From Telmatocola sphagniphila (GTDB taxonomy: Bacteria; Planctomycetota; Planctomycetia; Gemmatales; Gemmataceae), in NCBI RefSeq assembly GCF_018398935.1, contig NZ_CP074694.1:2970001-3002000 (forward strand): a stretch of 32,000 nucleotides of DNA, read 5' to 3'. A program made the translations under genes and the position numbers. Under the pieces are notes generated by a model that did not search any database, had not been told where the DNA came from, and saw nothing but the letters and a program-made list of their open reading frames with translations. Shown piece by piece: positions 3,335 to 32,000 of the stretch (the first letter of the stretch is position 1; each line of letters starts with the position of its first letter).

Positions 3335-3540
3335 TGAAATAGGTCTCCAGACAGAAAGAGTTTGTATTTCTGCCGTTGGGAATGTCTTCATTCTTACTAA
3401 CTTTCTTTCCTTCCAAACAAATTCCATACCCAAAATTCTGCTAATTCCAGGAAAAGCGAGACGCCCCTTGCCCTGCTTCATAGAATCTAATTACTTGATT
3501 GAAGTTGGACGCGAATCCTTCCGAATATCAATACATAGAT

Positions 3541-3615
3541 CGCGGCGTGGAGCAGCACGGTTAGCTCGCCAGGCTCATAACCTGGAGGTCACAGGTTCAA
3601 ATCCTGTCGCCGCAA
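3541..3615 (+). tRNA. Initiator tRNA-fMet (anticodon CAT), no encoded CCA
   Basis: Hand-folded cloverleaf: acceptor CGCGGCG/CGCCGCA with a C1xA72 mismatch, D-stem GAGC/GCTC (A11:U24), anticodon arm CCAGG-CTCATAA-CCTGG, T-arm ACAGG-TTCAAAT-CCTGT, discriminator A. It is very close to the E. coli tRNA-fMet sequence pattern. Confidence 0.93.
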
Positions 3616-3626
3616 TTCCGCTAGTA

Positions 3627-9485: not shown

Positions 9486-11695
9486 TTGAGCTCATTCAGA
9501 GTGTAGTAGGCGTCTTCGTGAACCAGGGAATCGCCTTTTTCGGATTTGATATCCTTCAGATGAAAGTCATAAAGCCGGCCTTTTTTCAGATTGGGTACGC
9601 TAATGCGAACGCTCTTCCGATCCTCCGCCACCTTGACCGATTCGACCTTCTCGGCTCGCGTATCCATTTCATCGCAGCCATACGCCGAGTGATATTCGTA
9701 CGTAAAGGATTTCACACTGAAGTTTTCCGGTTTGGAAGCCGTTGCGGCATCCAGTGGTTTGGTGAAGGTGAATTCAAACCCTTCTTTGAGCAAATGAAGT
9801 TCGTGGATTTCGAATGGCAGAACACCTGTATATATCAATCGCTGGAGTCCATAGGGTTTACCGCCGACCGACCCCCAACCGCGATTGGTCTGACCGGCAA
9901 AAATGCTGCCATCTGAGGCAAATGCGAGACGATTCACGCCGCACTGGAAACCGCTGCGGAACGGATAGCAAGCTCCCTGATAGTTACCATTCACTTTTTC
10001 AAGAGTCACTCGCATAATTGTCGACTTGGTTTGATCTCCAACAAAAATCTGTCCCGTGAAAGGGCCGAATTTTCCGCCCGTCGTATCCCAGATCGGTTCG
10101 GTGACGGACTGCCCCATACGACCGTATGGAAACCAGACGCAGGGAGGCGTCAGATTCGGGAAACCCGAAGGAGCGTTGGCCGCTTTGCCCTTCTGACCAT
10201 CGTAGAGCATACCACTGGGAACTTTGTCCGAGGCATTCTTGATAAACTGAGAATCCTTCAACCAGACCAGACTTGCCTGATGGCCGTAAAATTCCCCCTT
10301 CTTCAAGTGGTGCAACTTATTGGTCGCCACCCATTCGCCCTGATTATCGGTGTAGAACAGTTCCCCTTCGGGGCTGAAGTTCACGCCGTTGGGTGAACGT
10401 AGGCCGTAAGCGTAGGGTTCCATATCGCCACTGGGCGAGACCTTCACCGCCCAGCCGCGCCAGGGAGATTTCGCCTGGTGGCCGCCGCCAAATCCAACGT
10501 TGAGCGTGATGAAGAAATTGCCGTCTTTATCGCGAGCTGGCCCGAAGACAAACTCGTGATAATCGCCCGAGCAGCCCCACTTATCGCAGATGGTCACAAA
10601 CTCATCTGCGACGCCGGTTCCACTATGGTCGATCAATTTGGTCAATTCGGGTCGCTGGCAGACATAGACGACGGAATTACTTTCCACATGGAGTCCGAGC
10701 GATTCGTGCAACCCGGTCGCAAATCGCGTCATCTTCAATTTGCTCTGGTCTTCTTCGAGAGGATTGTGAATCAACCACACTTCGCCTCGACGCGTGCAGG
10801 CCAGAAGTTTTCCATCCGGCCGGAAGCCGAGCCCACCGACTTCGAGGACGCAATCGGCCGGTTGCTGGATGGTGACCATGCGATAATGCTGGGCTTCTGC
10901 GGAAGCGGCCGAGAAATTTGCGGAGGAGGAAGCACCGAAAGCCGCCGCGAGGCGATTCTTGATCTCGCCGGGCGCGGATTTTGGCAGTTCCGGATTCACG
11001 TAAACGGCGAAATCCCCGGCGGCATTCCCCACTTTGAGCAGGAGTTGATTTTTCCCGGGCTTTAAGGCGAGTTCGACCTCATCCTGATCCGGTTGGCAAG
11101 GTCGCACATAGTCGCCGTGGAGAAGTCGCTTGCCATTCACCCACACCGAAAGAGAGTCGTCGCTACCTAGCTTCAGGGGGATCAACTCAGGATCTTTCCC
11201 TTTGAGTTCAATCTCCTGGTAGAGGTAGACAACTGTATCATCGCTATCGGGAATCAGTTTTTTCAGATCATAGACGGTTCCCAGAGGAAACTTGGAGAGT
11301 TCCTTCCACTGGATTGTCCCCTTCTTCCCTGCGTACTTTTTCGTGAGATCGATTTCCTTCTCGGGAGGATATTCTTTTTCAAATCCCTGGTTCTCGGTGT
11401 TATCGAACGGCCCGATCCAGTACCACTTGCCTTCCAGATCGGGCAGACCATTGGCTTTTAAGGTTGCCCGAATCGTCTCCTGACGGCTTGATTTGGGAAT
11501 GTATTTCCATTTTTCCTGCGAGTAAAGATTTCCGCTGAAAATCAGGAATGCGAAGGGTATTAAAAGGGAACGAAGCACGGGATGGGATCCTTCTGTAAAA
11601 CAACCAGGTTGAATGGGTAGGCTGGAAGTTACTCTTTTGCCGCTATTGGACACCACTATCGGCATAATCGCGAAAACCGGCGGGCTGATCAACAA
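9482..11695 (-). CDS. Secreted multidomain protein: N-terminal beta-sandwich, then a glucose/sorbosone-dehydrogenase-like beta-propeller, then a C-terminal beta-sandwich
   Basis: 737-aa ORF. The propeller-like region has [39 protein letters not shown] and [17 protein letters not shown]. The start is uncertain: an internal GTG at 11578 gives a canonical signal peptide (M)[20 protein letters not shown] with AGGA upstream, and an ATG at 11665 is also possible. Confidence 0.7.
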
Positions 11696-18568: not shown

Positions 18569-19054
18569 TTATACCCGAGGGATCAAATGATCTAGTTCGA
18601 GAACATGCTTCCGACAGGCCGGCAAGAACTTCGATTGCAGCAGCGTTTTACAAGACTGACTGATTTCCGAATTTTCAATGGCATCCTCGTAGTCGCCGAT
18701 ACCAAGTTCTTCGCCTCGCTTCAAGGCCGCCAGAACCGTTTTTGGTCCGATGACCTTAGCCGTTTCGGTAACCGCGGAAGTAAAACTGCCCCAAGCCCCT
18801 GCACTGTCCTCAGGCTTCCCACCGAACTGCTGGATGCGCTGCTGCAACGAAGTCACCGCCTGACTGTGCTCGGCGCGAATGCGGCTCAATTCCTTCTGAA
18901 TGGCGAGGTCTTCAAACTTACTGATCGCCTGCTCATAAGCGGCCACTGCGGACAATTCCCCGCGCAGCAGCTTATTCATGCGATCCGTGTCACACTTCTG
19001 CTGATCGGTATCAATTGAAGAATCCAGGCCGGATGTCGTGATGTTCGTGGTCAT
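18569..19054 (-). CDS. DUF2383 / PA2169-like ferritin-like four-helix-bundle protein
   Basis: 161 aa, all-helical. LLRGELSAVAAYEQAISKF and GIGDYEDAIEN resemble the paired motifs of this family. The start ATG overlaps the upstream ORF's stop (ATGA at 19051-19054). Confidence 0.7.
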   Translation of the reverse strand: MTTNITTSGLDSSIDTDQQKCDTDRMNKLLRGELSAVAAYEQAISKFEDLAIQKELSRIRAEHSQAVTSLQQRIQQFGGKPEDSAGAWGSFTSAVTETAKVIGPKTVLAALKRGEELGIGDYEDAIENSEISQSCKTLLQSKFLPACRKHVLELDHLIPRV

Positions 19055-19236
19055 CTCGTTGCTTCCTCGAAAAAAATATCGTCTCGCAATTCAAGACGTA
19101 TTCCTATCAAGAGTGCAACGTCGATGCCAAAGAAGTATGCAATACCTGCATTCGAACTAGTTAAGGATTTTGACTTAAGAGTCAAACGGGAGAGGAGTTC
19201 AGAACCAAATTTAATAAGTGCTAACCGGACTTCCAT
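19051..19236 (-). CDS. Small ORF (61 aa), possibly a divergent HTH protein, translationally coupled to the DUF2383 gene
   Basis: ATG start and ATGA stop/start overlap with the downstream gene. FGSELLSRL...SLTSSNAGIAYFFGIDVALLIGIRLE loosely resembles an XRE-type HTH. No obvious Shine-Dalgarno. Confidence 0.4.
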   Translation of the reverse strand: MEVRLALIKFGSELLSRLTLKSKSLTSSNAGIAYFFGIDVALLIGIRLELRDDIFFEEATR

Positions 19237-19644
19237 AGCGATGTACTACGCGATTAGTTCGCATGCTGCCGACGAGAATGGTCCGCTTAGGTAGCAAATC
19301 CTGCAGCTTTCTTTGTACGAACTCTGCCGGGGAGAATTTTTCGCGTTCGTCCACAACAGACTCTTCTTGAGATTTGGGTGATAGAAATGGCGAAGCCTTC
19401 GTGGACATGCGTGTCGGTGACATCTTTTAATCCCCAAATACTGGGCGGACGATTAGCTTACGGCAGATCATGTGCCAAAGCAAAATTAATATCCGAATTA
19501 AATAAATATATATTTTCGACGGAGAAAACTGCGATGCGACAGCCATTTAAGATTTCTGAAGTCCGATTATTAAATGGCTAGCGCAACCCAATTCTCAACA
19601 ACGGGAAGACATCGCGCTGCTAAAAGGGCTGAATAAATGGCCGA

Positions 19645-20202
19645 TTAATGGCCGTTGCTTCCCAATTGAAGGGACTTCTGCACTAAAGTGGAGGTTAATC
19701 CCGGTTCCGCATTCTCTAACAAAGAGTAAAGCGAGGACAGCGAGCGTCGGGCGCTGCAAAGTCGAATCAACCGAATCGCCAGACGCACTTCTCCGAACAA
19801 AATCAGCTCACTGGCTCGTTCCCGCAACTTTTCACACGTCTCATTTTCCCAGCTTTTTTGTGCGACCTGATAAGCCTCTTCCACGGCATGATCTTCATCG
19901 ATTTCGTTCTGGATTTGCCCTTGGAGATTAAGAATCGTATCGCCTAACTGGAAGGCGTGCAGAATTGCTTGTTGCCCTCGTTCCGAAAGTTCAACCGCAT
20001 GCACGGGGTGGGCAGCAAATCTTTCTGCAAATACCGCAAAAGCATAGATTTCCTGACAGGCTCGGAGAAATTCCGCATTTAAACGCCCGAGAATCTCTAA
20101 TTTCGTCGGCGGAGCAGAATTGAGCGCCTCCACCCGAGACGATCGGGAAGCGGCGTTATTCCGAATTCTCTTCATGCGAGACATCGTAGCAGTACGGGAC
20201 AT
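19645..20202 (-). CDS. Hypothetical all-helical protein, last gene of the two-component operon
   Basis: The ORF is open to 20280. The ATG at 20202 (MSRTATMSRMKR...) has AGGAAG 7 nt upstream. No recognisable family motif. Confidence 0.55.
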   Translation of the reverse strand: MSRTATMSRMKRIRNNAASRSSRVEALNSAPPTKLEILGRLNAEFLRACQEIYAFAVFAERFAAHPVHAVELSERGQQAILHAFQLGDTILNLQGQIQNEIDEDHAVEEAYQVAQKSWENETCEKLRERASELILFGEVRLAIRLIRLCSARRSLSSLYSLLENAEPGLTSTLVQKSLQLGSNGH

Positions 20203-20359
20203 GGTGCATCTTCCTAAATGTGTGCTTCCATCAATTAAAACTTGGGGAAAGCCTAAAGCAGGACTTGTGCCGATCGGCATTAATAATTGATGAATTCAAT
20301 GCGAAATAGTCTGAAATGATAATTTGTATCGAAGTAATTAATTAAAAAAACGGCCCAGA

Positions 20360-21550
20360 TTAGCATTCAATTAATGGAAGCTTGACGAGTATTTCCGTTC
20401 CTTTTTCAATTCCTTCACTGCGTGCCTGAACGCTGCCGCCGTGCATCTCCACCAGCTTTTTCACCAGAGAAAGGCCTATGCCTAAACCACCTTGCGACCG
20501 ATTTAAACTGCGATCCACCTGCGTAAACAGCTCGAAGATCTGGGACACCATCTCTGGCGGAATTCCGACTCCCGTATCCTGCACGCAGATCGCTGCAAAC
20601 GAATCGCTTTGAGTGACCTTCAGACAGACTCGACCGCCGCGCTTGGTGTATTTTGCGGCATTGTTCAGCAAATTGGAAAAAACCTGCGCAAGCCGCAGCC
20701 TATCTCCCCGAACCTTGAGTTCCCGTTCGGGCATCTCCAGATCCAAAGTGATTCCCGCTTTGTCCAGGAGGGGTTGGCTGGTCTCCAGCGACAGGTCAAT
20801 TATCTCGCGAACTAGCAATAGGTCCAGATCCAGCGTCAACTTACTGCGGGTGATGCGGGAAATATCCAACAGGTCATCTATGAGGCGGATTAAGGTGTGC
20901 GTCTGCCTCTCCATGATTAAACGGGCTTTTTCAATCGTGGCAGGATTATCTGCCGCTATTCTCATGATTTCCAGAGCATTGCGAATCGGAGCGAGAGGAT
21001 TTCGCAGTTCGTGAGCGAGGGTGGCCAGGAATTCGTCCTTGCGCTTATCGGCCAGACGAAGCGCTTCATTTGCACGTGCTAGCTCTTCGGTGCGCTCGGC
21101 CACTTTCTTTTCAAGCTGGGTTTCGTATTGTCGCTGCTGCAAAGCGTAGCGGATCGTCCTATCCAGCACGGCAGCTTCCAACCGGCTCTTTTCCAGAAAA
21201 TCGGTCGCGCCGGCATCCATGGCCGCCAAGTCGATTTCCGTACTACTTTGACCTGTCAGAAGAATGATTGGCGATTTGCAACCCAAAGCGCGCGCCTCCT
21301 TGAGCAGTTCCAGGCCGCTTTTTTCTCCTAGCCGGTAGTCCAGCAGGTAGATGTCGTGCTCGCCCCGACGGATCGCCTCAAATCCCTCTTCGAACTTCCA
21401 GATCCATTGAAGATTGAAACTCGCGTGAGAGATGTCGCTCAAGACCTGCTTGGTGAGGTAGTAATCGTCCTCATCATCGTCGATCAGCAGAATCTCGATG
21501 GGACGATCAGTTACGGGAGTTGGACCGTTCATAGTGAGGCAACTCCACAA
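20360..21550 (-). CDS. Cytoplasmic hybrid protein: N-terminal receiver domain, then HisKA and HATPase_c histidine kinase domains
   Basis: REC: ILLIDDDEDDYYL..DIYLLDYRLGEKSGLELL..PIILLTG. H-box LAHELRNPLAPI. N/G boxes NLLNNAAKYT, DTGVGI, GGLGIGLSLV. No TM segments. An alternative start at 21532 (MNGPTP) is possible. Confidence 0.9.
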   Translation of the reverse strand: MWSCLTMNGPTPVTDRPIEILLIDDDEDDYYLTKQVLSDISHASFNLQWIWKFEEGFEAIRRGEHDIYLLDYRLGEKSGLELLKEARALGCKSPIILLTGQSSTEIDLAAMDAGATDFLEKSRLEAAVLDRTIRYALQQRQYETQLEKKVAERTEELARANEALRLADKRKDEFLATLAHELRNPLAPIRNALEIMRIAADNPATIEKARLIMERQTHTLIRLIDDLLDISRITRSKLTLDLDLLLVREIIDLSLETSQPLLDKAGITLDLEMPERELKVRGDRLRLAQVFSNLLNNAAKYTKRGGRVCLKVTQSDSFAAICVQDTGVGIPPEMVSQIFELFTQVDRSLNRSQGGLGIGLSLVKKLVEMHGGSVQARSEGIEKGTEILVKLPLIEC

Positions 21551-21989
21551 TCTCTAGCCAATACTTGCCCAGAACTTTGATGACTTCCACGAGCCCTTCG
21601 AAGGTCACGGGCTTCGTTATGTAAGAAGAGGCCGACAAATTGTAGGATTTTATGATGTCTTCCTCGGCCTTGGAGGTCGTCATGATCACCACGCGAAGCG
21701 TTTTCAGATGGGGATCTGCTTTTATTTCCTGCAGAGCTTCGCGGCCATCCTTGCGAGGCATATTCAGATCGAGAAGCAACAATCCCGGCATGGGGGAGGA
21801 CGCCGGGTCGCTGTATTTGCCTCTTCTATGCAAATAATCCATCAGTTCTTCACCATCATTGACAAAACGCAGATCGTTGGCAAGCCGGCTCTCTGCAAAT
21901 GCCTCCTGAGTCAATCGTCGATCATCAGGATCATCATCAGCCATAAGAATTGTCACGATTCGTTCCTTGAGCGAAGAGTTGAAAACCAA
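21507..21989 (-). CDS. Single-domain response regulator (Rcp1/CheY-like receiver)
   Basis: ILMADDDPDDRRL..LLLLDLNMPRKDGREAL..VVIMTTS..YITKP. TTG start at 21989 is preceded by AAGGAG 6 nt upstream (the SD overlaps the stop of the upstream kinase). Confidence 0.9.
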   Translation of the reverse strand: MVFNSSLKERIVTILMADDDPDDRRLTQEAFAESRLANDLRFVNDGEELMDYLHRRGKYSDPASSPMPGLLLLDLNMPRKDGREALQEIKADPHLKTLRVVIMTTSKAEEDIIKSYNLSASSYITKPVTFEGLVEVIKVLGKYWLEIVELPHYERSNSRN

Positions 21990-21999
21990 TGGACGCTCC

Positions 22000-24675
22000 T
22001 TAAATCTGAACCGAAGGGATAGTCACTTCGAAGGTCGCTCCTTGCCCCGGCTGGCTTTTCGCGGAGATCGATCCACGATGCCTTTCAACTATTTTTCGAC
22101 AGATCGCCAGCCCCACACCGGTCCCTTCATATTCATCTCGTCCATGCAGCCTTTGAAATACTTCAAAGATTCGGTCCAAATACTTTTCGTCAAAGCCTAT
22201 GCCGTTATCACTTATATCAACCCTATAGCAGGCGGGTTTAACCGAATCATTATTATCAGCACTATTTGTGCCAATCAACTGAGATGCAATGTTAACTTCA
22301 GGAGGAACACCGACTTTATGAAACTTCAAAGCATTTCCGATCAGATTTTGAAAGAGTTGTCGCATTTGTAAGGCATCTGCTTGAATTTTTGGCAACTTGC
22401 CCACGATGACTTGGCCGCCGGTCTGTAGCAAGCGGCCTTCCAAATCGGAGAGAACTTCCTGGACTAGGAGGTTCAAATCGACCATCTCGAAATTTCCCGG
22501 TTTCGTGGTAACTCGGGAGAAGGCCAGCAGGTCATCAATCAGTCGACGCATACGGGCCGAGGAATCCAGCATCCGCTCGATATAGTTTTGCCCTTCCTCA
22601 CCCAGTGTTGACTGGTATTTCTGAGTGAGTCGATTCCCAAACGCCTGAATTTTCCGAAGGGGTTCCTGGAGATCGTGGGAAGCCACATACGCAAACTTTT
22701 CCAATTCCTCGTTACTTCGCCGCAGTTCGCGTGCCTGATTCTTTTCCCGCTCCTCGGCTCGGCTTCTTTCCTCAACCTCCTCCTGAAGGGATCTATTCAA
22801 TTTCAAGAGTTCCGAAGTTCTCAACTCAACCAGACGCTCTAAGACTTCAGATTGCAGTTTCTGTTCGTGAATGTCCGTCATAGTTCCCACCCACTGAGAA
22901 ATCTCACCAGTGGTTTCTCGAAGTGCCACCGCATTCGTGAGCATCCAGCGGTAATTGGGATCACTCTTGCCGCGCAGGCGAAACTCATTGACGTAATGGT
23001 CCGAGTTGGCCTGACGGGCTTTCTCCCAAGCATCATGCATGCCTTGAAGATCCTCCGGATGCACCAACTCTCTCCAGCCGAGATTTCGCGCCAGTTCCAC
23101 GGTCACACCGGTGTGATCGATCCAGCGGCGGTTATAATAAGTGACCTGACCGCTCGCGTCAGTTGCCCAAACCATCTGAGGAATCGCCTCGGTCAGCAGG
23201 CGGAACCGTTCCAGACTTTCGCGCAATTCCACTTCAATTTTGCGATGCTCGGTAACATCCCGAGAGACGCAGACATAACGAAATGGCGTTCCGTCGGGCC
23301 CGGGAATCGGAGCAATTTGAACGTCCCAGTACTTCGGTGTTCCTTTCATCGTCGGCCGAGAACCACTGAAGCGACCAATGGACCCGCTGGTGGCGAGATC
23401 GAACGCTTTCTTCACGTCTTGCTGCTGCTCGGGAGTCCACATACTTTCCCACTGCCGACCTTTGATCTGCTCGAAGTCATCGATCTGCATGAGCTTGCGA
23501 CCCGGCGAATTCATCTCTTGAATTCGGCCTTCCCGATCGAGAATTTTGATGCAATCCGGACTGTTCTCCAGAACGCTTCGGAAAAAGGCTTCACTATCCC
23601 GAATCTGTTGTTCGGTATGTAATTGTTCCGTGATATCCAAAGCAATGACGCCCAGCCCAATTTTCTTCTGCAGATTATCGCGAACGGGAAAAATGCTCAA
23701 ACGCCAGACACGCTTCTTTCCGGATACTTCCTGTTCGATGTGCAAAATCCGATCGGGAATTCGTTCGCCGGTGGCCAGGGAGTGCTTGAAATCCTGCAGA
23801 ATTTCTTCGGGAAAATCCGATCGGAGTTCTCGCGGCGTCTTTCCCCAGTGCGCGGCCAGAGGCAGGCGGTTCATTTCTGCAATTTGGTGATTCGCTCTCA
23901 CGTACCGAAGGTTAGGATCGAAGAAGGAAATTCCCACCGGAGCGTTCTGGAGAAATGCATCGAGTTGTGCAAGAGTCTCCGCCATATCCTGACGGGAACT
24001 ATCGAGATGCTGATTCGTCTCGCGTAATTTTCGCTCCACAGTCTTGCGATGTTTCAACTCGCTATGAACTAATCGATAAGCCCCGCCGACGAGAAACAGA
24101 ATCAGAAAACCGCCGACGATATTGGTAATGGCGGCTACCAGATAGCTGTTTTCAGCCGTATTAATTCGCTGCTGGTACAAATCCTCCTCGACTCGATCCA
24201 TCGCGGAAATTTGTTTCTGCACATCGTTCATCAGGCTAAAACCGCTACCCGATTTTATAACTTTTTCTGCCTCGACCTCCCCAGAGGCCTTTCGAACGGC
24301 TATGGTCTTGCGCAGCAGATTTAATTTGTCCTGAATAAGCTCCCCAAGTTGGTTAGCGCGCTCTACCTGCTCCGGGTTGTCTTGGGTTAAATTCTTAAGT
24401 ACAGTTAACTCCAGCTCGAGCATCTTCGCGGCGCGCTCAAAAGATTCTAAATATCTATCCTGTTCGGTAATTTGATAACCTCGCTGGCTCGATTCCGCAT
24501 CTTTTACGAGCGATAGAACATCGACAAGTTCCTTCTGGACATCGCGAGTGTGGGCCACGAGTTGATCGTGTTCGCGAAGGGTCTGCATATTGGAACGAGA
24601 CGCCAGAAAGTTCAGAATCACCGCCACGAAGGCCAACAACCATACTACAAGCATTTTCTTGGACGAATTACCCAT
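22000..24675 (-). CDS. Membrane sensor histidine kinase: CHASE3 periplasmic domain, about three PAS domains, HisKA, HATPase_c
   Basis: TM1 MLVVWLLAFVAVILNFL. CHASE3-like region (HTRDVQKELVDVLSLVKDAESSQRGYQITEQDRYLESF). TM2 LVAAITNIVGGFLILFLVGGAY. PAS cores (GISFFDPNLRYVRAN, DCIKILDREGRIQEMN, MVWATDASGQVTYYNRRW). H-box SHDLQEPLRKI. ATP-lid DNGIGF, GTGVGLAIC. Confidence 0.9.
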   Translation of the reverse strand: MGNSSKKMLVVWLLAFVAVILNFLASRSNMQTLREHDQLVAHTRDVQKELVDVLSLVKDAESSQRGYQITEQDRYLESFERAAKMLELELTVLKNLTQDNPEQVERANQLGELIQDKLNLLRKTIAVRKASGEVEAEKVIKSGSGFSLMNDVQKQISAMDRVEEDLYQQRINTAENSYLVAAITNIVGGFLILFLVGGAYRLVHSELKHRKTVERKLRETNQHLDSSRQDMAETLAQLDAFLQNAPVGISFFDPNLRYVRANHQIAEMNRLPLAAHWGKTPRELRSDFPEEILQDFKHSLATGERIPDRILHIEQEVSGKKRVWRLSIFPVRDNLQKKIGLGVIALDITEQLHTEQQIRDSEAFFRSVLENSPDCIKILDREGRIQEMNSPGRKLMQIDDFEQIKGRQWESMWTPEQQQDVKKAFDLATSGSIGRFSGSRPTMKGTPKYWDVQIAPIPGPDGTPFRYVCVSRDVTEHRKIEVELRESLERFRLLTEAIPQMVWATDASGQVTYYNRRWIDHTGVTVELARNLGWRELVHPEDLQGMHDAWEKARQANSDHYVNEFRLRGKSDPNYRWMLTNAVALRETTGEISQWVGTMTDIHEQKLQSEVLERLVELRTSELLKLNRSLQEEVEERSRAEEREKNQARELRRSNEELEKFAYVASHDLQEPLRKIQAFGNRLTQKYQSTLGEEGQNYIERMLDSSARMRRLIDDLLAFSRVTTKPGNFEMVDLNLLVQEVLSDLEGRLLQTGGQVIVGKLPKIQADALQMRQLFQNLIGNALKFHKVGVPPEVNIASQLIGTNSADNNDSVKPACYRVDISDNGIGFDEKYLDRIFEVFQRLHGRDEYEGTGVGLAICRKIVERHRGSISAKSQPGQGATFEVTIPSVQI

Positions 24676-24802: not shown

Positions 24803-26251
24803 ATGACGACCGAAGTTCCTGAACCGATAACCGGCCCAAAAGAGCCTGCGATCTCTCAGCGCGTACTAGTTGTGGAAGATCTCGAGGATACAAGAGTATC
24901 GCAACAGCAATTATTATGCCTATCGCTGGGTCTGGAAGTCGATACCGCCGAGGATGGCCAGGCAGCACTGAGTATGCTGTTGGAGCGCAATTACAGTCTG
25001 GTGATAACCGATCTTCGCATGCCGAAACTCAACGGCATGAAATTGATCGAAGAAATCAATCAGCGCAAATTGCCTGTTACTGTCATTGTGACGACCGGAC
25101 ATGGGGGGGTGAATGATGCCGTAAACGCCATGCGAATGGGCGCTTACGATTTTCTCGTAAAACCCCCGAACCCGCAGCATCTTTGCATGCTGGTGCAAAG
25201 GGCACTTCGGGAAAGATCCCTACAAGATGAAGTTGCATCACTTCGTCAGGAACTCGGGCAAAGGCATTCGTTTCAGAATGTCATTTCGAAAAGTCCGCGG
25301 ATGCACGATGTTTTCGAATTGATCGGCCAAATTGCCACGACCTCCTCTACCGTTCTAGTGATTGGCGAAACCGGTAGCGGGAAAGAGCAGATCGCCCGAG
25401 CGATTCATCAAGCCTCGGCCGAGCAGAGACCAGGGGCCTTTGTGGCAATTAATTGCGCGGCACTGCCCGAAACTCTTCTGGAAAGCGAACTATTCGGACA
25501 CGAAAAAGGAGCCTTCACAGGGGCTACCACTCAGCGCAAAGGCCGTTTTGAACAGGCTCATAAGGGTACTATATTCCTGGATGAAATCGGCGATGTTCCT
25601 CTGGCGATGCAAGTAAAACTCCTGCGGGTGCTCCAAGAGAGAAAATTCGAGCGCATCGGTGGAACTGAAACCGTCGAAATTGATGTTCGAGTTGTCGCAG
25701 CGACGCACCAAGCGTTGGAAAAGCTTGTAAAAGACGGCAAGTTCCGCGAAGATTTATTTTATCGTCTGAACGTTATTCGCATCGACGTACCCCCATTGCG
25801 GGACCGGCCCGAAGATATTCCAGTTCTAGCGAGCTTCTTTGCGCAGAAATTTACTCGCACCGGCCAGACACCTCCCAAGCTCAGCCCCGAAGCCTTACAG
25901 GTACTACAAGGTTATTCCTGGCCCGGTAATGTGCGTCAGCTGGAAAATGCCTTGGAAAGAGCCTGTATCACGGCCCGAGATGGCCTCATTTTGCCCAAAC
26001 ATTTGCCTTCGGATATCAGCGGATTGATATCCTCTTCGAAACAGGCAATGCAAGTCGATCTGTCACGAAGTTTACCGGAGCAGTTGTCCGAATTGGTTGC
26101 CAGTTTTGAGAAACGCTACCTGCGCAAAGCATTGAGGCGAACACGCGGCCATGTTGGCAAGACGGCCAAGATCAGTGGATTATCGCGAAGAAGTGTTACT
26201 GAAAAAATCGGACACTATGCGATCGACAAAGCAGAATTTAAAAAGGACTGA
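24803..26251 (+). CDS. Sigma-54-dependent response regulator (NtrC-family enhancer-binding protein)
   Basis: REC (VLVVEDLEDT..LVITDLRMPKLNG..VIVTTGHG). AAA+ sigma-54 interaction domain (GETGSGKE Walker A, GAFTGA loop as EKGAFTGA, IFLDEIGD Walker B, RVVAATH). C-terminal Fis-type HTH (GHVGKTAKISGLSRRSVTEKI). Confidence 0.93.
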   Translation: MTTEVPEPITGPKEPAISQRVLVVEDLEDTRVSQQQLLCLSLGLEVDTAEDGQAALSMLLERNYSLVITDLRMPKLNGMKLIEEINQRKLPVTVIVTTGHGGVNDAVNAMRMGAYDFLVKPPNPQHLCMLVQRALRERSLQDEVASLRQELGQRHSFQNVISKSPRMHDVFELIGQIATTSSTVLVIGETGSGKEQIARAIHQASAEQRPGAFVAINCAALPETLLESELFGHEKGAFTGATTQRKGRFEQAHKGTIFLDEIGDVPLAMQVKLLRVLQERKFERIGGTETVEIDVRVVAATHQALEKLVKDGKFREDLFYRLNVIRIDVPPLRDRPEDIPVLASFFAQKFTRTGQTPPKLSPEALQVLQGYSWPGNVRQLENALERACITARDGLILPKHLPSDISGLISSSKQAMQVDLSRSLPEQLSELVASFEKRYLRKALRRTRGHVGKTAKISGLSRRSVTEKIGHYAIDKAEFKKD

Positions 26252-26262
26252 AGGATATTGAA

Positions 26263-26289
26263 GATGCGGGACTTTTTCAGTCTCGCATC
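26263..26289. terminator. Stem-loop between two convergent stops (candidate bidirectional terminator)
   Basis: GATGCGGGACT-TTTTC-AGTCTCGCATC: 11-bp stem with one G-U wobble. It lies in the centre of the 57-nt gap between the stops at 26251 and 26309. Confidence 0.5.
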
Positions 26290-26308
26290 CAGAATTGTCT
26301 GAAATCCA

Positions 26309-26632
26309 CTAGCGCCGCCAACCACGGCCACCGCTGCGGAATCCACCCCGGTAGCCGGAGCGATAAAAATTATTATACCCCCAACGGTAACTGGGCCTAT
26401 AACCCCAGTTATAATATCCACCGTTTCCTATTCCGATGGAAAAATTGGGGCCACTATAGTAGAGTCCGGGATAACTACTATAAGAATAGTAGTTATAGGG
26501 CTGATAATAGGGCGTAGAGTAGGAATATCCGTAGGTTCCAGGATCATACGTAGTAACAATCTGGGCTTTGGCCTGAGAGCCGGTCAATAGCAGCACAGCG
26601 ATTCCGGCGACTAAAACATTTTGAATCCTCAT
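26309..26632 (-). CDS. Small secreted Tyr/Gly/Ser/Asn-rich low-complexity protein with Arg/Gly-rich C-terminus
   Basis: ATG at 26632 preceded by AAGGAG 7 nt upstream (track start is an upstream TTG, 26650). Signal peptide MRIQNVLVAGIAVLLLTGSQAKA. The 84-aa mature part has 20 Tyr, 16 Gly and 8 Arg (all in the last 29 aa), and no Lys, Glu or Cys. A sigma-54 promoter match lies upstream and a hairpin downstream. Confidence 0.75.
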   Translation of the reverse strand: MRIQNVLVAGIAVLLLTGSQAKAQIVTTYDPGTYGYSYSTPYYQPYNYYSYSSYPGLYYSGPNFSIGIGNGGYYNWGYRPSYRWGYNNFYRSGYRGGFRSGGRGWRR

Positions 26633-26678
26633 GGTGATTCTCCTTATCAAAAGCCATTTGATACAGAAAGATTAAACC

Positions 26679-26693
26679 GCAATCCGAATGCCA
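26679..26693 (-). promoter_or_regulatory. Sigma-54 (-24/-12) promoter match facing the Tyr/Gly-rich gene
   Basis: Minus strand reads TGGCAT-TCGGA-TTGC, with exact consensus spacing (TGGCAC-N5-TTGC). The -12 element lies about 47 nt upstream of the ATG at 26632. Confidence 0.7.
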
Positions 26694-26787
26694 ACGATCA
26701 TACTGGTTAAATTTTTCTGGTTCTTCCGAGACACTTTTGACATGCCTGGTGCGCGAAGGTGAGAATTCGAGTTCTCTTTGTTCGTGC

Positions 26788-26810
26788 AATCACTGACTAA
26801 ATGAGTGATT
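26788..26810. promoter_or_regulatory. Perfect inverted repeat between the two sigma-54 promoters (candidate activator/UAS site)
   Basis: AATCACT-N9-AGTGATT (7-bp arms). It lies about 95 bp upstream of the minus-strand -24 element and about 20 bp upstream of the plus-strand -24 element. Confidence 0.45.
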
Positions 26811-26830
26811 TTCAACAATTCACCTTTTGA

Positions 26831-26845
26831 CGGCACATAAGTTGC
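26831..26845 (+). promoter_or_regulatory. Sigma-54 (-24/-12) promoter match facing the cyclic glucan synthase gene
   Basis: CGGCAC-ATAAG-TTGC with exact GG-N10-GC spacing. The -12 element is about 44 nt upstream of the ATG at 26889, which has GAGG 7 nt upstream. Confidence 0.65.
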
Positions 26846-26888
26846 CTGTTTGCGATGATTCTAGCTCGAAATTTATTGAGGTTTATTT

Positions 26889-29800
26889 ATGGTGGAATCG
26901 GTTCAGGTCCCTATTGCCGAGAAACCATCCAATCTAGTTGACTATCTCTCCGATTACACCCACCCCTTGCGTTTGGATGCCGCGGGCCATGAGAGTTTGT
27001 TGCAGAAAATCCGCGAATTGGCTGTCGGTTCGATTGATTCGATTGCACCGAGTTCTCGTTCCGTACTGATACGCTTTCGAGGCAACTGCGCCCGACTTAA
27101 AGAGGTGCACCGGGAGCTGGCCCTTAGAGCGGCCTTAGGGGAACAGATTCCTAGTGAATCCGAATGGTTGCTCGACAACTATTACATCATTCAGGAAGTC
27201 GTTCGAGAAATTCGCAATGATCTTCCCAAGGGTTACTATCGAGAGTTGCCCGCCCTACTCAGTGGACCTTTTGCAAGACTCCCTCGGATCTGTCCGTTTG
27301 CCTTTTCGCTGCTGGCTTATACCGATTCGGCTTTTACGGAGTCCGACATTACGGAAGCCGTGACGGAATACCAACGTGTCGCTCCGCTATCCATCGGTGA
27401 AATCTGGGCGATCCCGACGATGTTGAGGCTCGCTCTACTGGAGAATTTGAGGCGAATTGCCGATCAGATTGTTTCGACTATCAAGGAGCACCGCTCCGCG
27501 ACCGCAGCGGTATTACTCGCGAACAAGGGGAGCCAGCCGCTTCTGCCTACCCAGCCCACGGACGCTTTTGCTGTGGCCTTCTGGGAAGGATTGCGCGACG
27601 GCGATAACACGAGTGCAGTCCGAAGCGACTTAGTTCACGATTGGTTATCGGAACACATAGCCGATCCCGGAAAGATTGAACATCGCGAATACTGCCGACA
27701 GGCGGCAAATCAAGTTTCCATCGGGAACGCCATCACTAGTCTTCGCTTGCTCGGCGTCATTGACTGGATGAACTTTTTCGAATCGGTCAGCTTAGTTGAG
27801 GCCGAGCTTCGCAGAGACCCGGCGGGAATCTACGGCCGACAGGATTTTGGAACGAGAGATCGTTGTCGCCAAGCAGTGGAGAAACTTTCCCGACAATCCA
27901 AAATTTCCGAATTGGACATTGTTAAGCGGGCCAATCACCAGGCCGAACTTTCGAAATCGACCTCTCCCCTTCCCAACGCCAGCTTTTTAATCGGAGAGCA
28001 TCGTCAGGTTTTTGCGCAAAGCCTCAAGCCGATTCCCTTCTGGAAAATGAGCAGGCAGGATTGGCTCCTGGAACATCCCAATTTATTCTTTTTTGGGCTA
28101 CTCGGTTCGCTGACTGCACTTCTGGTAATTAGTGCGATTGCCCTCTCCGGAGCAAGTTCTATAAGTCTCATCGTTCTGGTGGCATTGGCTGCCTTACTTC
28201 CCGCGAGCGAACTGGCTGTCGGCTTTTCCAATTTTTTCATTACTCGTCAGCTTGCCCCTCGAGTGCTACCCAAGCTCGATTTCAAAAATGGAATTGCGAA
28301 CGGATGCGACACCTTCGTGGTGATCCCGACTCTGCTGACCAGACCGGAACAAGCCGCCGTGCTTTGCGAACGGTTGGAGTTACACTATTTATCCAACTCC
28401 GATCCCAAGCTTCGGTTTGCATTGCTTACAGACTTCCCGGATGCAGATGCAGAGCAAACGCCGAGCGACGATCCAAGTCTCCAGACGGCCTTGGAAGGCA
28501 TTCAGAAATTGAATGAACTGCACGCGGAGGAAAACTCTCCTCGCTTTTTTCTCTTTCACCGTCGAAGGCTTTGGAATCCCTCGCAAAACTGCTGGATGGG
28601 GTGGGAACGCAAACGCGGTAAACTCGAAGAATTCAACAGTTTGCTTCGCGGTGATAAGAACACCACCTACTCGATTCAATCTTCTGTCATCGATAAACTG
28701 CCGCCGATTCGCTATGTCCTTACACTCGATGGCGACACCGTTCTGCCTCGAGACGCCGCGCGGCAGATGATCGCTACATTGGCCCATCCACTTAATCAGC
28801 CGATATTATCGGAAGATAAACGCCGGGTGATTTCCGGTTTTGGACTATTACAACCCCGAGTGAGTTTCCTTTATAAAACCGGATTTCAGTCGTGGTTTGC
28901 AAGCCTTTTCGCAGGCTCTGCCGGGATCGATCCTTATTCCGCCGCGGTGTCCGATACGTACATGGATCTTTTTGCCAAGGGAACTTTCACAGGCAAAGGG
29001 CTGTACGATATCGATGCTTTTCAAGCGACCTCGGGACAAGCTTTCCCCGAAAATGCCATCTTAAGTCACGATCTGATCGAGTCAAATTATACGCGCTGTG
29101 CCCTGGCCACCGATGTCGAAGTCTTCGATGAGTTCCCTTCGCGTTATAACTCGTACGCTCGGCGCGAACATCGATGGATCCGAGGCGACTGGCAATTGCT
29201 GCCCTGGTTGAGTCGCCGAGTGCCAACTTCTTCCGGCGAAGCGATCAATATTCTGCCGGCTTTGGAACGCTGGAAGATCATCGATAATTTGCGCCGGAGT
29301 CTCGTACCGGCCAGTCTCGTTCTGCTCTTGCTTCTGGCCGCGACCATTCTGCCCGGACAATTTCTTGGCTGGTGTGGCTTTGTTATGATCCTATTCGCGT
29401 GGCCAACGATCTTTTATCTGCTCGAAACTGCGTTGTTAAAATTGCATGGCAAATCTTCGAGGAGTTTGATTGCCCGCTTACGGGCCGATCTTCCTTCAAC
29501 TCTCGGACAATCGGCCCTGCAATTCGCGTTTCTACCCAATCAAGCCTGGGTGGCCATTCATGCAATTGGTACGACGCTTTACCGTCTGAATTTTTCGCGA
29601 AAGAAATTACTGGAATGGGAGACCGCCGCAGCGGCAGAAGTCCGTTTGGGAACTCAATTCAAGGCCTTCCTCCACTCCATGTTTCCCGCCGTGATAATAT
29701 CTCTGGTCTGTTTGCTTCTTGTGGGAATATCCCACTTGAGCAATTTGATTTATTTTGCTCCGATCGGCCTGCTCTGGCTAATGTCACCCCTGATCGCCTG

Positions 29801-32000
29801 GCGAATCAGCCAACCGCGACAATTTTTGGAAAGAAGCTTAACCGAAGAAGAACGATTGGAACTCCGGCTGGTTTGTCGAAAGACCTGGAATTTCTTCGAA
29901 ACTTTTGTCGGGGATGCCGATAATCACTTGCCTCCGGACAACTACCAGGAAGATCCTTTGTCGGCAGTGGCCCACCGCACTTCCCCTACGAATATCGGTT
30001 TATATCTCCTTTCCGTTCTGGCTGCGCACGATCTGGGATACCTCACCCTGCCTCAGATGCTGGAGCGATTACGCAAAACATTTGCATCGATTCAAAAATT
30101 GGAAAAGTATCGCGGCCATCTGTTGAATTGGTACGAAACCACAACGCTAGAGACTTTACAGCCTGGCTACGTCTCCACGGTCGACAGCGGGAATTTATTA
30201 GCCTGTCTGCTGACGTTGAAGCAGGGCCTTTTAGAAAAAATGCGAACCCCGCCGCAGTCAACTCCCGAGGGACTACGAGATACCTGCGAACTGTTTCTGA
30301 AAGCCCTTTCAGAGCCAGCGCATAACGATCCCAAATTGAAACAGCAGGCTGAGGAGTTGCGAAAAGCACTTTTAACGAAATTTAAACTCACCGAGATTCA
30401 ATCTTCACTCGTTTCACTGCAATCGAAATCTCTTTCTAGTCATCCTGAGGCGGAAGTTTGGCTTTCTCGACTCTCCCAACAAGTGCAACAACAGTTGCTT
30501 TTAGATCAACAGCCTACCGAGCAAAGTGTCGGGTGCCCCAAGGAAATGGCTGAGATCGCTGAAGAGGCCGAGCGATTAGCAAAGGGCATGGATTTTCGAT
30601 TTCTTTATAATGCCGAGCGGGATCTCTTCAGCATTGGCTATAACTGCAACACGCAAAGATTAGACACTTCACATTACGATTTGCTCGCTTCAGAATCCTG
30701 CATCGCCAGTTTTCTGGCGGTCGCTCGCGGTCAAGTCCCCAGAAAGCACTGGTTTCAATTAGGTAGGCTTTCAATGTATGCCGCGGGAGAGACCGGCTTG
30801 ATCTCCTGGGGTGGTACGATGTTCGAGTATCTGATGCCCCGGATCCTTCTACCGGTACCGCAGGGAGTATTGCTCGATCGGGCACAACGCACGGCCGTCG
30901 CCCGACAGATCGAGTTTGGTGCGGAAGAGAAACTACCCTGGGGTGTTTCCGAATCCGGATTTTATCTGCTTGATGCCGGTAAAATCTATCAGTACCAATC
31001 GTTCGGGGTTCCTGGTTTGGGTTTAAAAAGGGGCCTGGAAAAAGATCGGGTCGTGGCTCCCTATGCGACTCTGATGGCTGTGGACATCGATCCCCAGAAA
31101 GCGATCGCCAACCTGAAGGAGCTGAAAAAGTGGGGCGGCGAGGGCAAATTCGGTTACTACGAAGCATTGGATTTTTCTCCCCAGCGCATCCCGGAGGGGA
31201 GTAAATGTCGTGTCGTGAAATCCTATATGGCTCATCATCAGGGTATGGGATTGCTGGCCATTCTGAATCGGTTGACCCAGGGAGCGCTCCGTCGCCGATT
31301 CCAGGCGGAACCGGTCGTCCGCTCCGCGGAATTACTACTGCAGGAGCGGATTCCCAACGATTTTCCGATCTTCGAGCCGGAGGTTGCCACCGTCGAGGAC
31401 CAGCAACTTTCGACCTTCAACGCTCCTTCGCGACGGCGAATCACCACTCCGGATACTCCCGTTCCACGCACGCATCTTTTATCCAACGGCCTTTACACCG
31501 TAATGATCACCAACTCCGGCGCGGGTTTCAGCCGCTATGGCGATATAGATATCACTTTCTTCCGCGCCGATCGGACGACCGACGACTGCGGACAGGTTAT
31601 CTATTTGCGTGACCGCCGTTCCGGAAAAATCTGGTCCGTGGGCTATCAGCCGATCCGCAAAAAAACGTCCCATTATGAAGTCATCTTTTCGCTCGATAAG
31701 GCTGATATCCGCCAGTTTGATGACGGCATTGAGACGCATCTGGAAATCACCGTTCCCCCCGATCAGAACGTCGAGATTCGGCGACTATCGATAGCCAATC
31801 AATCGGCCCGGCAAGTCCGGTTGGATGCTACCAGCTATGCCGAGATTGTGCTCAATGATCATCGCGCTGACATGGCTCACCCGGTCTTTGGAAAGCTATT
31901 TCTGGAAACGGAATGGGTCCCGCAATACTGTGCCCTTCTATGCCAACGCCGGCCCCGTACTCCCAACCAGAAGACGGGCTGGGCCATGCACTTGCTGGTA
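26889..32000 (+). CDS. Cyclic beta-1,2-glucan synthase (Cgs/NdvB/ChvB-like; GT84 domain plus start of the GH94-type region), 5' 1704 codons; continues beyond the window
   Basis: Not in the supplied ORF track because it has no stop in the window. I translated it by hand: MVESVQVPIAEKP... stays open to nt 32000. TM segments (LFFFGLLGSLTALLVISAIAL, LIVLVALAALLPASELAV). GT domain with DXD (YVLTLDGDTVLPRDA), GKGLYDIDAF, and the signature REHRWIRGDWQLLPW. Later motifs: HRTSPTNIGLYLLS, STVDSGNL, WGGTMFEYLMP, YMAHHQGM. Confidence 0.88.
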   Translation, partial: MVESVQVPIAEKPSNLVDYLSDYTHPLRLDAAGHESLLQKIRELAVGSIDSIAPSSRSVLIRFRGNCARLKEVHRELALRAALGEQIPSESEWLLDNYYIIQEVVREIRNDLPKGYYRELPALLSGPFARLPRICPFAFSLLAYTDSAFTESDITEAVTEYQRVAPLSIGEIWAIPTMLRLALLENLRRIADQIVSTIKEHRSATAAVLLANKGSQPLLPTQPTDAFAVAFWEGLRDGDNTSAVRSDLVHDWLSEHIADPGKIEHREYCRQAANQVSIGNAITSLRLLGVIDWMNFFESVSLVEAELRRDPAGIYGRQDFGTRDRCRQAVEKLSRQSKISELDIVKRANHQAELSKSTSPLPNASFLIGEHRQVFAQSLKPIPFWKMSRQDWLLEHPNLFFFGLLGSLTALLVISAIALSGASSISLIVLVALAALLPASELAVGFSNFFITRQLAPRVLPKLDFKNGIANGCDTFVVIPTLLTRPEQAAVLCERLELHYLSNSDPKLRFALLTDFPDADAEQTPSDDPSLQTALEGIQKLNELHAEENSPRFFLFHRRRLWNPSQNCWMGWERKRGKLEEFNSLLRGDKNTTYSIQSSVIDKLPPIRYVLTLDGDTVLPRDAARQMIATLAHPLNQPILSEDKRRVISGFGLLQPRVSFLYKTGFQSWFASLFAGSAGIDPYSAAVSDTYMDLFAKGTFTGKGLYDIDAFQATSGQAFPENAILSHDLIESNYTRCALATDVEVFDEFPSRYNSYARREHRWIRGDWQLLPWLSRRVPTSSGEAINILPALERWKIIDNLRRSLVPASLVLLLLLAATILPGQFLGWCGFVMILFAWPTIFYLLETALLKLHGKSSRSLIARLRADLPSTLGQSALQFAFLPNQAWVAIHAIGTTLYRLNFSRKKLLEWETAAAAEVRLGTQFKAFLHSMFPAVIISLVCLLLVGISHLSNLIYFAPIGLLWLMSPLIAWRISQPRQFLERSLTEEERLELRLVCRKTWNFFETFVGDADNHLPPDNYQEDPLSAVAHRTSPTNIGLYLLSVLAAHDLGYLTLPQMLERLRKTFASIQKLEKYRGHLLNWYETTTLETLQPGYVSTVDSGNLLACLLTLKQGLLEKMRTPPQSTPEGLRDTCELFLKALSEPAHNDPKLKQQAEELRKALLTKFKLTEIQSSLVSLQSKSLSSHPEAEVWLSRLSQQVQQQLLLDQQPTEQSVGCPKEMAEIAEEAERLAKGMDFRFLYNAERDLFSIGYNCNTQRLDTSHYDLLASESCIASFLAVARGQVPRKHWFQLGRLSMYAAGETGLISWGGTMFEYLMPRILLPVPQGVLLDRAQRTAVARQIEFGAEEKLPWGVSESGFYLLDAGKIYQYQSFGVPGLGLKRGLEKDRVVAPYATLMAVDIDPQKAIANLKELKKWGGEGKFGYYEALDFSPQRIPEGSKCRVVKSYMAHHQGMGLLAILNRLTQGALRRRFQAEPVVRSAELLLQERIPNDFPIFEPEVATVEDQQLSTFNAPSRRRITTPDTPVPRTHLLSNGLYTVMITNSGAGFSRYGDIDITFFRADRTTDDCGQVIYLRDRRSGKIWSVGYQPIRKKTSHYEVIFSLDKADIRQFDDGIETHLEITVPPDQNVEIRRLSIANQSARQVRLDATSYAEIVLNDHRADMAHPVFGKLFLETEWVPQYCALLCQRRPRTPNQKTGWAMHLLV

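Follow-up and report, generated by a model that had tools for sequence, protein, structure and literature searches.

In enterobacteria, the divergent sigma-54 promoters of hyc/hyp (with FhlA as the activator) and of nifH/nifJ (with NifA) share the intervening DNA as an enhancer region. A comparable layout is found in the zraP/zraSR locus of E. coli and Salmonella, where two back-to-back sigma-54 promoters lie in one short intergenic region, the NtrC-type regulator ZraR is encoded in the same locus as its sensor kinase, and one arm encodes a stress protein that is small and either secreted or periplasmic (PMC4987338, which also lists FhlA targets). Here we analyzed a stretch of 32,000 nucleotides from Telmatocola sphagniphila, a peat-bog planctomycete of the Gemmataceae (the stretch is referred to as the window; contig NZ_CP074694.1, positions 2,970,001 to 3,002,000) and, within it, the intergenic region at window positions 26633-26888, which separates a gene for a Tyr/Gly-rich protein from a gene resembling cyclic beta-1,2-glucan synthases (cgs). 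Our data indicate that this 256-bp region is probably a bidirectional sigma-54-dependent control region, in which two divergent promoters would be served, most likely, by the NtrC-type activator encoded next door.

Judged by its layout, zraP/zraSR is the closest described arrangement, and hyc/hyp and nifH/nifJ are similar. The back-to-back promoters in one short region, the NtrC-type regulator encoded in the same locus with a sensor kinase, and the small secreted or periplasmic protein on one arm all have counterparts here. Unlike in zraP/zraSR, the activator and kinase genes form neither arm, the activator gene converging with the small gene. A 2823-aa glucan synthase occupies the second arm, and sigma-54 dependence is predicted from sequence. 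Moreover, ZraP and the Tyr/Gly-rich protein are unrelated, the latter being an orphan. The hyc/hyp and nifH/nifJ systems have defined upstream activator sequences, whereas our searches found no recurring site at this locus. Divergent -24/-12 promoters near an NtrC-type activator represent a textbook mechanism, and the locus is of a known kind and introduces no new mechanism. Its central features are as follows.

26309..26632, minus strand: gene for the Tyr/Gly-rich protein, 107 aa, with a Sec-type signal peptide (MRIQNVLVAGIAVLLLTGSQAKA)
26678..26693, minus strand: predicted sigma-54 promoter of the Tyr/Gly-rich gene, TGGCATTCGGATTGCG, with a predicted transcription start site (TSS) near 26667 and a 35-nt leader
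26694..26830, no strand: inter-promoter segment of 137 bp, by geometry the expected place of a shared enhancer; motif searches here were negative
26831..26846, plus strand: predicted sigma-54 promoter of the cyclic beta-1,2-glucan synthase gene, CGGCACATAAGTTGCC, with a predicted TSS near 26857 and a 32-nt leader
26889..32000, plus strand: cyclic beta-1,2-glucan synthase-like gene (Cgs/NdvB/ChvB type), represented by its 5' 1704 codons and continuing past the window end

The intergenic region has a GC content of 39.5% and is flanked by two diverging genes. A preliminary description of this DNA had placed TGGCAT-N5-TTGC on the minus strand and CGGCAC-N5-TTGC on the plus strand, and both motifs were recovered when the sequence was read again: TGGCAT-TCGGA-TTGC at 26693..26679 and CGGCAC-ATAAG-TTGC at 26831..26845. 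In each promoter a spacing of exactly 10 bp separates the GG and GC dinucleotides (in the minus promoter, GG at 26692-26691 and GC at 26680-26679), in a context resembling TGGCAC-N5-TTGC(A/T), and the back-to-back -24 elements are separated by 140 bp. A position weight matrix (PWM) of our own, which approximates the published sigma-54 consensus and hence gives approximate scores, assigned 13.1 to the minus promoter and 11.9 to the plus promoter. The distance of 44-47 nt claimed between promoter elements and start codons was borne out, with 47 nt from the C of the -12 GC to the ATG at 26632 for the minus gene and 44 nt to the ATG at 26889 for the plus gene. The same description had credited each gene with a good Shine-Dalgarno sequence. 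This holds for the minus gene, which has a strong AAGGAG 7 nt upstream of its ATG, but not for the plus gene, whose site is weaker and consists of GAGG alone, 9 nt upstream. At the sequence level, one intergenic region thus holds two divergent predicted sigma-54 promoters, which very probably serve the Tyr/Gly-rich gene and cgs, respectively.

The promoter matches are far beyond chance, in line with the earlier claim that two of them so close together were very unlikely to be accidental. The window has 5 matches to GGCAY-N5-TTGC, where 0.52 are expected, and 6 to YGGCAY-N6-TGC, where 0.88 are expected; none of 100 shuffles reached 5 or 6, respectively. All six YGGCAY-N6-TGC matches fall within 19.1-26.9 kb, that is, in about 8 kb around the activator gene, the remaining 24 kb being free of them. 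Of the six, five lie between genes and face, on the right strand, a start codon 40-61 nt downstream. On the source contig (Logan assembly L081; a window coordinate equals the L081 coordinate plus 14802), 6 of the 10 matches with a PWM score of at least 11.9 are correctly oriented and have a called start 20-120 nt downstream, a placement open to 3.5% of all positions (binomial P = 3.6e-7). Shuffles of the window gave about 1.9 PWM matches of at least 12 per 64,000 strand positions, and one match on each strand within 256 bp has a probability of roughly 6e-5, with the distance to a start codon not yet required.

The region lies beside a conserved signaling module, which consists of the following genes.

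20360-21532, minus strand: hybrid receiver-histidine kinase, 3' of the kinase gene, a conserved part of the module
21507-21956, minus strand: single-domain response regulator, 3' of the kinase gene, also a conserved part of the module
22000..24675, minus strand: CHASE3-PAS histidine kinase, the presumed sensor, divergent from the activator gene; identified by domain search, in a module conserved in relatives
24803..26251, plus strand: NtrC-type sigma-54 activator gene, 482 aa, REC-AAA+(GAFTGA)-HTH (helix-turn-helix), candidate activator of the local promoters

The preliminary description had noted a sigma-54 activator gene ending close to the stop of the Tyr/Gly-rich gene. The gap measures 57 nt (26251 versus 26309), and the gene encodes a complete REC-AAA+(GAFTGA)-HTH protein. 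Domain searches identified REC, Sigma54_activat, AAA_lid and HTH_8 (Pfam PF00072, PF00158, PF25601 and PF02954; E = 1.6e-72 for PF00158). The receiver domain carries DLRMP at 70 (Asp70), the ATPase domain carries Walker A GETGSGKE at 188, GAFTGA at 236 and Walker B DEIG at 260, and the C-terminus is a Fis-type HTH spanning about residues 420-482. By these sequence features the protein is a full NtrC-type bacterial enhancer-binding protein. It did not reach the equivalog cut-offs of AtoC, NtrC or ZraR, and no named subfamily was assigned. It is 100% identical to a protein that NCBI assigns to Telmatocola sphagniphila. No other activator gene was found in the 21 kb examined.

We propose that sigma-54 RNA polymerase would bind 26693..26678 (minus) and 26831..26846 (plus), back to back, in closed complexes. 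The promoters would then be opened by an activated hexamer of an enhancer-binding protein, which would hydrolyse ATP and touch sigma-54 via its GAFTGA loops, following the sigma-54/ATPase-activator mechanism outlined in PMC3162934 and PMC4987338. The predicted starts of transcription are near 26667 for the Tyr/Gly-rich gene and near 26857 for cgs. The most likely activator would be the NtrC-type regulator encoded 57 nt away (24803-26251), which is the best candidate because it is adjacent and because its orthologs are associated with sigma-54 sites across the family. This regulator may in turn be phosphorylated at Asp70 through the CHASE3-PAS kinase and the pair formed by the response regulator and the hybrid kinase. 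The motifs, their significance and placement, the intact activator and the recurrence of sites around its orthologs are computed results; the start sites, the acting activator, its binding place and the inducing signal are what we infer.

We also infer that rpoN is present in T. sphagniphila, because the GAFTGA activator is intact, sigma-54 and its activators co-occur across genomes (PMC3162934), and rpoN occurs in other planctomycetes (PMC2754498, PMC3906078). For example, R. baltica has rpoN plus a stress cluster with Dps and PNPOx (PMC2754498). Additionally, a Salmonella rpoN mutant was complemented by a planctomycete rpoN (Leary 1998, cited in PMC3906078), so the canonical sigma-54 consensus should be applicable here.

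Comparison with relatives supports the association between this activator family and sigma-54 sites. Orthologs of the activator in Gemmataceae are about 70-83% identical, and their HTH is nearly invariant among those compared. Ortholog loci with DNA came from Zavarzinella, Frigoriglobus, Gemmata, a metagenome contig with an NCBI Fimbriiglobus ruber protein, and further metagenome contigs. Across these loci the order of the module is conserved: hybrid kinase, regulator, PAS kinase, and then the divergent activator. Five of them (L086-L090) have strong -24/-12 sites 39-77 nt upstream of genes adjoining the module. Downstream of these sites lie genes for DUF883/YqjD-like and Phage_holin_3_6 (YqjE-like) proteins, for small membrane or Cys-rich proteins, for an AI-2E transporter with a fused B12-binding domain and, in L090, for the activator itself. 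One such site, located in the last codons of the AI-2E transporter/B12-binding gene (TGGCACGGNNGGTGCW in L087-L089, TGGCACGAGACGTGCT in L090), recurs in four genomes, with a DUF883-like gene of 124-155 aa starting 62-71 nt downstream. A seventh locus, represented by proteins only, has genes for DUF2383, DUF1328, BrkB and a glucan-branching-type enzyme adjoining the module. Divergent sigma-54 pairs also occur in L086 (1985-2000 minus and 2239-2254 plus, about 240 bp apart) and in L088 (137-152 minus and 168-183 plus, 16 bp apart). These spacings differ widely, and therefore the geometry of the divergent pair is not conserved.

The glucan-synthase side gave a similar signal. Among 80 homologous cgs loci from many phyla, 6 sites scoring at least 11.5 were found 15-150 nt upstream of the predicted start, where the locus-wide rate predicts 0.45 (Poisson P about 8e-6), and homologs in other phyla have upstream sites at roughly tenfold the expected rate. 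Among the six are sites in L083 (TGGCACCTGAGTTGCG) and L001 (CGGCACGATGCGTGCA), which belong to the closest planctomycete relatives.

We then consider where an activator might bind between and around the two promoters. The repeats and related elements concerned are as follows.

19169-19186, read on the minus strand: perfect inverted repeat TTTGACT-N4-AGTCAAA, about 50 nt 5' of the DUF2383 promoter
26664..26719, no strand: imperfect 15-nt inverted repeat (13/15), CAGAAAGATTAAACC at 26664-26678 and GGTTAAATTTTTCTG at 26705-26719, bracketing the minus promoter core
26732..26741, plus strand: near-repeat copy 1, CACTTTTGAC, containing TTGACA, the -35 hexamer of a sigma-70-like match
26737-26766, plus strand: the sigma-70-like match itself, TTGACA-18-GAGAAT, upstream of cgs and within chance
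26788..26810, no strand: perfect inverted repeat AATCACT-N9-AGTGATT, with its centre at about -58 relative to the plus TSS and -132 relative to the minus TSS
26821..26831, plus strand: near-repeat copy 2, CACCTTTTGAC, abutting the -24 element of the plus promoter

The preliminary description had proposed AATCACT-N9-AGTGATT as a dimeric activator site. The repeat is real and perfect, at 26788-26810, but the proposed role found no support: the repeat is at chance level, occurs once, has half-sites 16 bp apart and corresponds to no shared motif. When the 137-nt inter-promoter segment was shuffled, 12% of the shuffles contained a perfect 7-nt inverted repeat whose spacer was at most 20 nt, and the window contains 77 such repeats. 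No second copy was found in the window or at the other local sigma-54 promoters with 3 mismatches allowed. The half-site centres are 16 bp apart, which amounts to about 1.5 helical turns, an unusual spacing for a dimeric HTH protein.

The near-repeat CAC(C)TTTTGAC was likewise present where it had been described, at 26732 and 26821. Its core CTTTTGAC occurs 2 times in the window against 1.43 expected. TTTGAC is part of both copies, and 4 of its 17 copies in the window lie upstream of sigma-54 sites, among them the repeat TTTGACT-N4-AGTCAAA, whose half-site spacing of 11 bp is typical for a dimeric HTH protein. TTTGAC/GTCAAA was considered as an activator half-site and set aside, the proposal being post hoc and the motif absent from the promoters of relatives; it is retained as a lead. 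The imperfect inverted repeat at 26664-26719 arises in about 1.3% of shuffles (P about 0.013). Among spaced dyads the top candidate was CGG-N8-TTG, which was discarded as merely the sigma-54 motif of the partner promoters. An Rfam search of the region found no known RNA element, and the leader hairpins were no better than those of shuffles (z = -0.59 and -1.79).

Several observations weigh against a bidirectional sigma-54 control region. The PWM is our own approximation. In the cgs promoter a C replaces the T at -26, and in both promoters TTGC is followed by G or C rather than A/T. The search for a common activator site covered 6 to 23 promoter upstream regions and yielded nothing above controls in any of its forms, namely a k-mer search with mismatches on the Telmatocola promoters, perfect inverted repeats in 21 promoters from 6 genomes, and spaced dyads in 23 promoters. 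Given the conserved HTH, the absent shared motif is an unexplained gap. A sigma-70-like match, as listed above, also lies upstream of cgs. The comparison with relatives is uneven. The Zavarzinella locus L084 has a single weak intergenic site, upstream of the kinase gene. Among the four closest cgs homologs, L082 has a weak GG-N10-GC site only, and no sigma-54-like site was found upstream of the homolog in L091. An ISL3-family transposase gene lies directly 5' of the L091 homolog (4615-5421), and this IS element (insertion sequence) may account for the locus being without a sigma-54-like site. The closest cgs homologs (47-54% identity, among the matches listed) have unrelated neighbours, with no synteny. 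The Tyr/Gly-rich protein is an orphan and the cgs homologs are not syntenic, and therefore no orthologous intergenic region is available for alignment. Finally, the sole source of the Tyr/Gly-rich open reading frame (ORF) is one gene call in a Logan assembly, and the NCBI annotation might not call the ORF with this exact sequence.

These points bear differently on the alternatives. The promoters may be real sigma-54 promoters and yet be activated by another enhancer-binding protein, or by the adjacent one acting from outside the 137-bp segment. We consider this rather unlikely, although it accounts for the fact that no recurring upstream motif ties the local promoters to one DNA-binding protein. 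It would also fit the L088 pair, whose 16-bp spacing leaves no room for an enhancer in between, and the genes adjoining the activator, which vary between genera and so mark the adjacency of cgs as recent. However, the six Telmatocola pattern matches all lie within 8 kb of this activator, a like clustering is seen around its orthologs at five other Gemmataceae loci, and this is the one activator gene in the 21 kb examined.

Quite improbable, in our view, is the proposal that housekeeping-type promoters (such as TTGACA-18-GAGAAT for cgs) drive the genes, with the sigma-54-like elements being silent, auxiliary or roadblocks that bind polymerase. A perfect -35 hexamer and a 4/6 -10 hexamer with 18-nt spacing do lie 5' of cgs, the near-repeat CTTTTGAC includes TTGAC, and the majority of cgs homologs in other bacteria are without a sigma-54-like site. 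The sigma-70-type scan gave 1 match against 1.6 expected in shuffles, so this match carries no weight; the minus gene is without a comparable sigma-70-type match, and the sigma-54 sites depart strongly from randomness in how many there are, where they lie and which way they point. The same non-randomness makes it highly improbable that both matches are functionless chance resemblances in an AT-rich spacer. Each match specifies about 9-10 bases, and intragenic look-alikes do exist (in a kinase G2 box, in ligA and in a transporter gene), but the pair probability of roughly 6e-5, the counts above all 100 shuffles and the placement P value of 3.6e-7 all stand against an accident. Two divergent sigma-54 promoters are thus favoured by enrichment, placement, the adjacent activator and the relatives, while the part of the preliminary description that made the inverted repeat an activator site is not supported.

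The two promoters belong to a local set of 5 (window) to 7 (source contig) predicted sigma-54 promoters. The other sites are listed here, together with one match inside the activator gene (24906-24921) that is not counted in this set.

19114..19129, minus strand: best sigma-54-like site of the window, TGGCATCGACGTTGCA, PWM score 15.3, 61 nt 5' of the DUF2383 gene at 18569-19054
19462..19477, minus strand: sigma-54-like site TGGCACATGATCTGCC, 40 nt 5' of an uncalled 70-codon ORF at 19211-19423
20257..20272, minus strand: intergenic sigma-54-like site CGGCACAAGTCCTGCT, 56 nt 5' of a 185-aa gene of unknown function at 19645-20202
24906-24921, minus strand: sigma-54-like site AGGCATAATAATTGCT in the receiver-domain codons of the activator gene, facing the kinase gene, 231 nt 5' of its start
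L081 20584-20599, plus strand, beyond the window: sigma-54-like site CGGCATTGAAATTGCA, 81 nt 5' of the Dps/ferritin gene
L081 21185-21200, plus strand, beyond the window: sigma-54-like site TGGCACACAAAGTGCG, 54 nt 5' of the gene following Dps

The site at 24906-24921 could be an autoregulatory promoter or a chance match. In relatives, too, sigma-54-like sites are found close to where the activator gene starts (L087 and L088 at 10021-10036, L086 at 7119-7134), at positions not homologous to it. Sites inside histidine-kinase genes (22258-22273, L084 7060-7075 and L086 4323-4338) were considered as a conserved internal promoter for the regulator gene and rejected, as the L084 site consists of G2-box codons. 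The codons of the G2 box TGIGLA spell TGGCATCGGACTTGCA, and the L084 7060-7075 site reads ACTGGCATCGGACTTGCA; G2-box codons are a systematic false positive in -24/-12 scans. Sites inside the kinase genes, ligA and the transporter gene were discounted, several strong intragenic matches being coding artefacts.

On the source contig the cgs product has 2823 aa, with Glycoamylase, GH94_b-supersand and Glyco_hydro_94 domains and a Glyco_trans_2_3 match at residues 609-838 that lies at the cut-off (GT2-like region). Its homologs are called cyclic beta-1,2-glucan synthetase by JGI and NCBI, with identities of 37-54% among the matches listed. In length and in its glycosyltransferase plus GH94-type layout it resembles Cgs/NdvB/ChvB of Brucella, Sinorhizobium and Agrobacterium. 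With about 2800 aa, an N-terminal glycosyltransferase region and a C-terminal GH94-type region, the sequence is of the Cgs/NdvB/ChvB type, and a cyclic beta-1,2-glucan is its predicted product. A Dps/ferritin gene lies 3' of cgs on the source contig.

The mature Tyr/Gly-rich protein comprises 83 residues, including 20 Tyr, 16 Gly, 10 Ser and 8 Arg, and has an RGG-like C-terminus (RSGYRGGFRSGGRGWRR). Pfam and NCBIfam searches gave no match, and no homolog was found either by a word-indexed search of 5.8e9 (5.8 billion) proteins or by an exhaustive HMMER search of 1.84e9 (1.84 billion) representatives. The convergent gap of 57 nt between the activator gene and this gene (26252-26308) contains a hairpin, GATGCGGGAC-TTTTTCA-GTCTCGCATC. 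This hairpin is possibly a bidirectional terminator, and it is absent from the output of a simple terminator scan.

The genes around the module point to a regulon for osmotic, oxidative, desiccation or stationary-phase stress. Stress-type genes here include cgs, Dps and DUF2383 (the product of which is a ferritin-like four-helix bundle), and those in relatives include DUF883, YqjE-like, DUF1328 and BrkB. The surroundings of the Gemmataceae module overlap in gene content with the RpoS regulon of E. coli and the EcfG/PhyR regulons of Alphaproteobacteria, the shared elements being Dps, YciE/DUF2383, DUF883 (ElaB/YqjD type), YqjE-type (Phage_holin_3_6), DUF1328, BrkB/YihY and glucan/osmoprotectant synthesis. 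In contrast to those regulons, the promoters predicted here are of the -24/-12 type, which needs an ATPase activator, and not of the sigma-70 family. We tentatively hypothesize that Gemmataceae may run a general-stress-type response via sigma-54 instead of a sigma-70-family stress factor, with the conserved module as its master switch. Such a response might cover Dps, DUF2383, DUF883/YqjD-like, YqjE-like, DUF1328, BrkB and glucan/osmoprotectant synthesis, although we hold the hypothesis as a whole to be less likely than not. Each genus could conceivably plug different genes into it, which in Telmatocola would be the 2823-aa cgs and a newly arisen, secreted Tyr/Gly-rich protein. This wider idea exceeds the evidence.

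Cyclic beta-1,2-glucan serves osmoadaptation and host interaction in Proteobacteria. Our search of the literature yielded no paper that places the characterised Cgs/NdvB/ChvB enzymes, or any cyclic glucan synthase, under sigma-54. If confirmed, the present prediction would tie cyclic beta-1,2-glucan synthesis to an ATP-gated, tightly off/on sigma-54 switch. In silico predictions of sigma-54 promoters and activators in Pirellula/Rhodopirellula were reportedly made by Studholme and Dixon in 2004, as cited in PMC2754498; these organisms are also planctomycetes, but belong to the Pirellulales, whereas the present locus is from the Gemmatales. No description of the Gemmataceae module was found in the literature search, which did not cover that work. 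The promoters described here would, if confirmed, be among the few concrete promoter-level regulatory predictions for planctomycetes, a phylum whose transcriptional control has hardly been studied. The conserved two-component/activator module with its local stress-type regulon may offer a handle on stress sensing and survival in Gemmataceae, and the predicted promoters, if confirmed, would provide a ready set of tightly regulated parts for genetic tools.

The part of the window 5' of 19 kb holds ordinary genes, including the ligA 3' end and genes for a GT2 glycosyltransferase, a sulfotransferase, a sodium:solute symporter, aspartate kinase and hydrolases, as well as a tRNA-adenosine-deaminase-like gene. 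A tRNA-Met (CAU) gene lies at window positions 3540-3616 on the plus strand.

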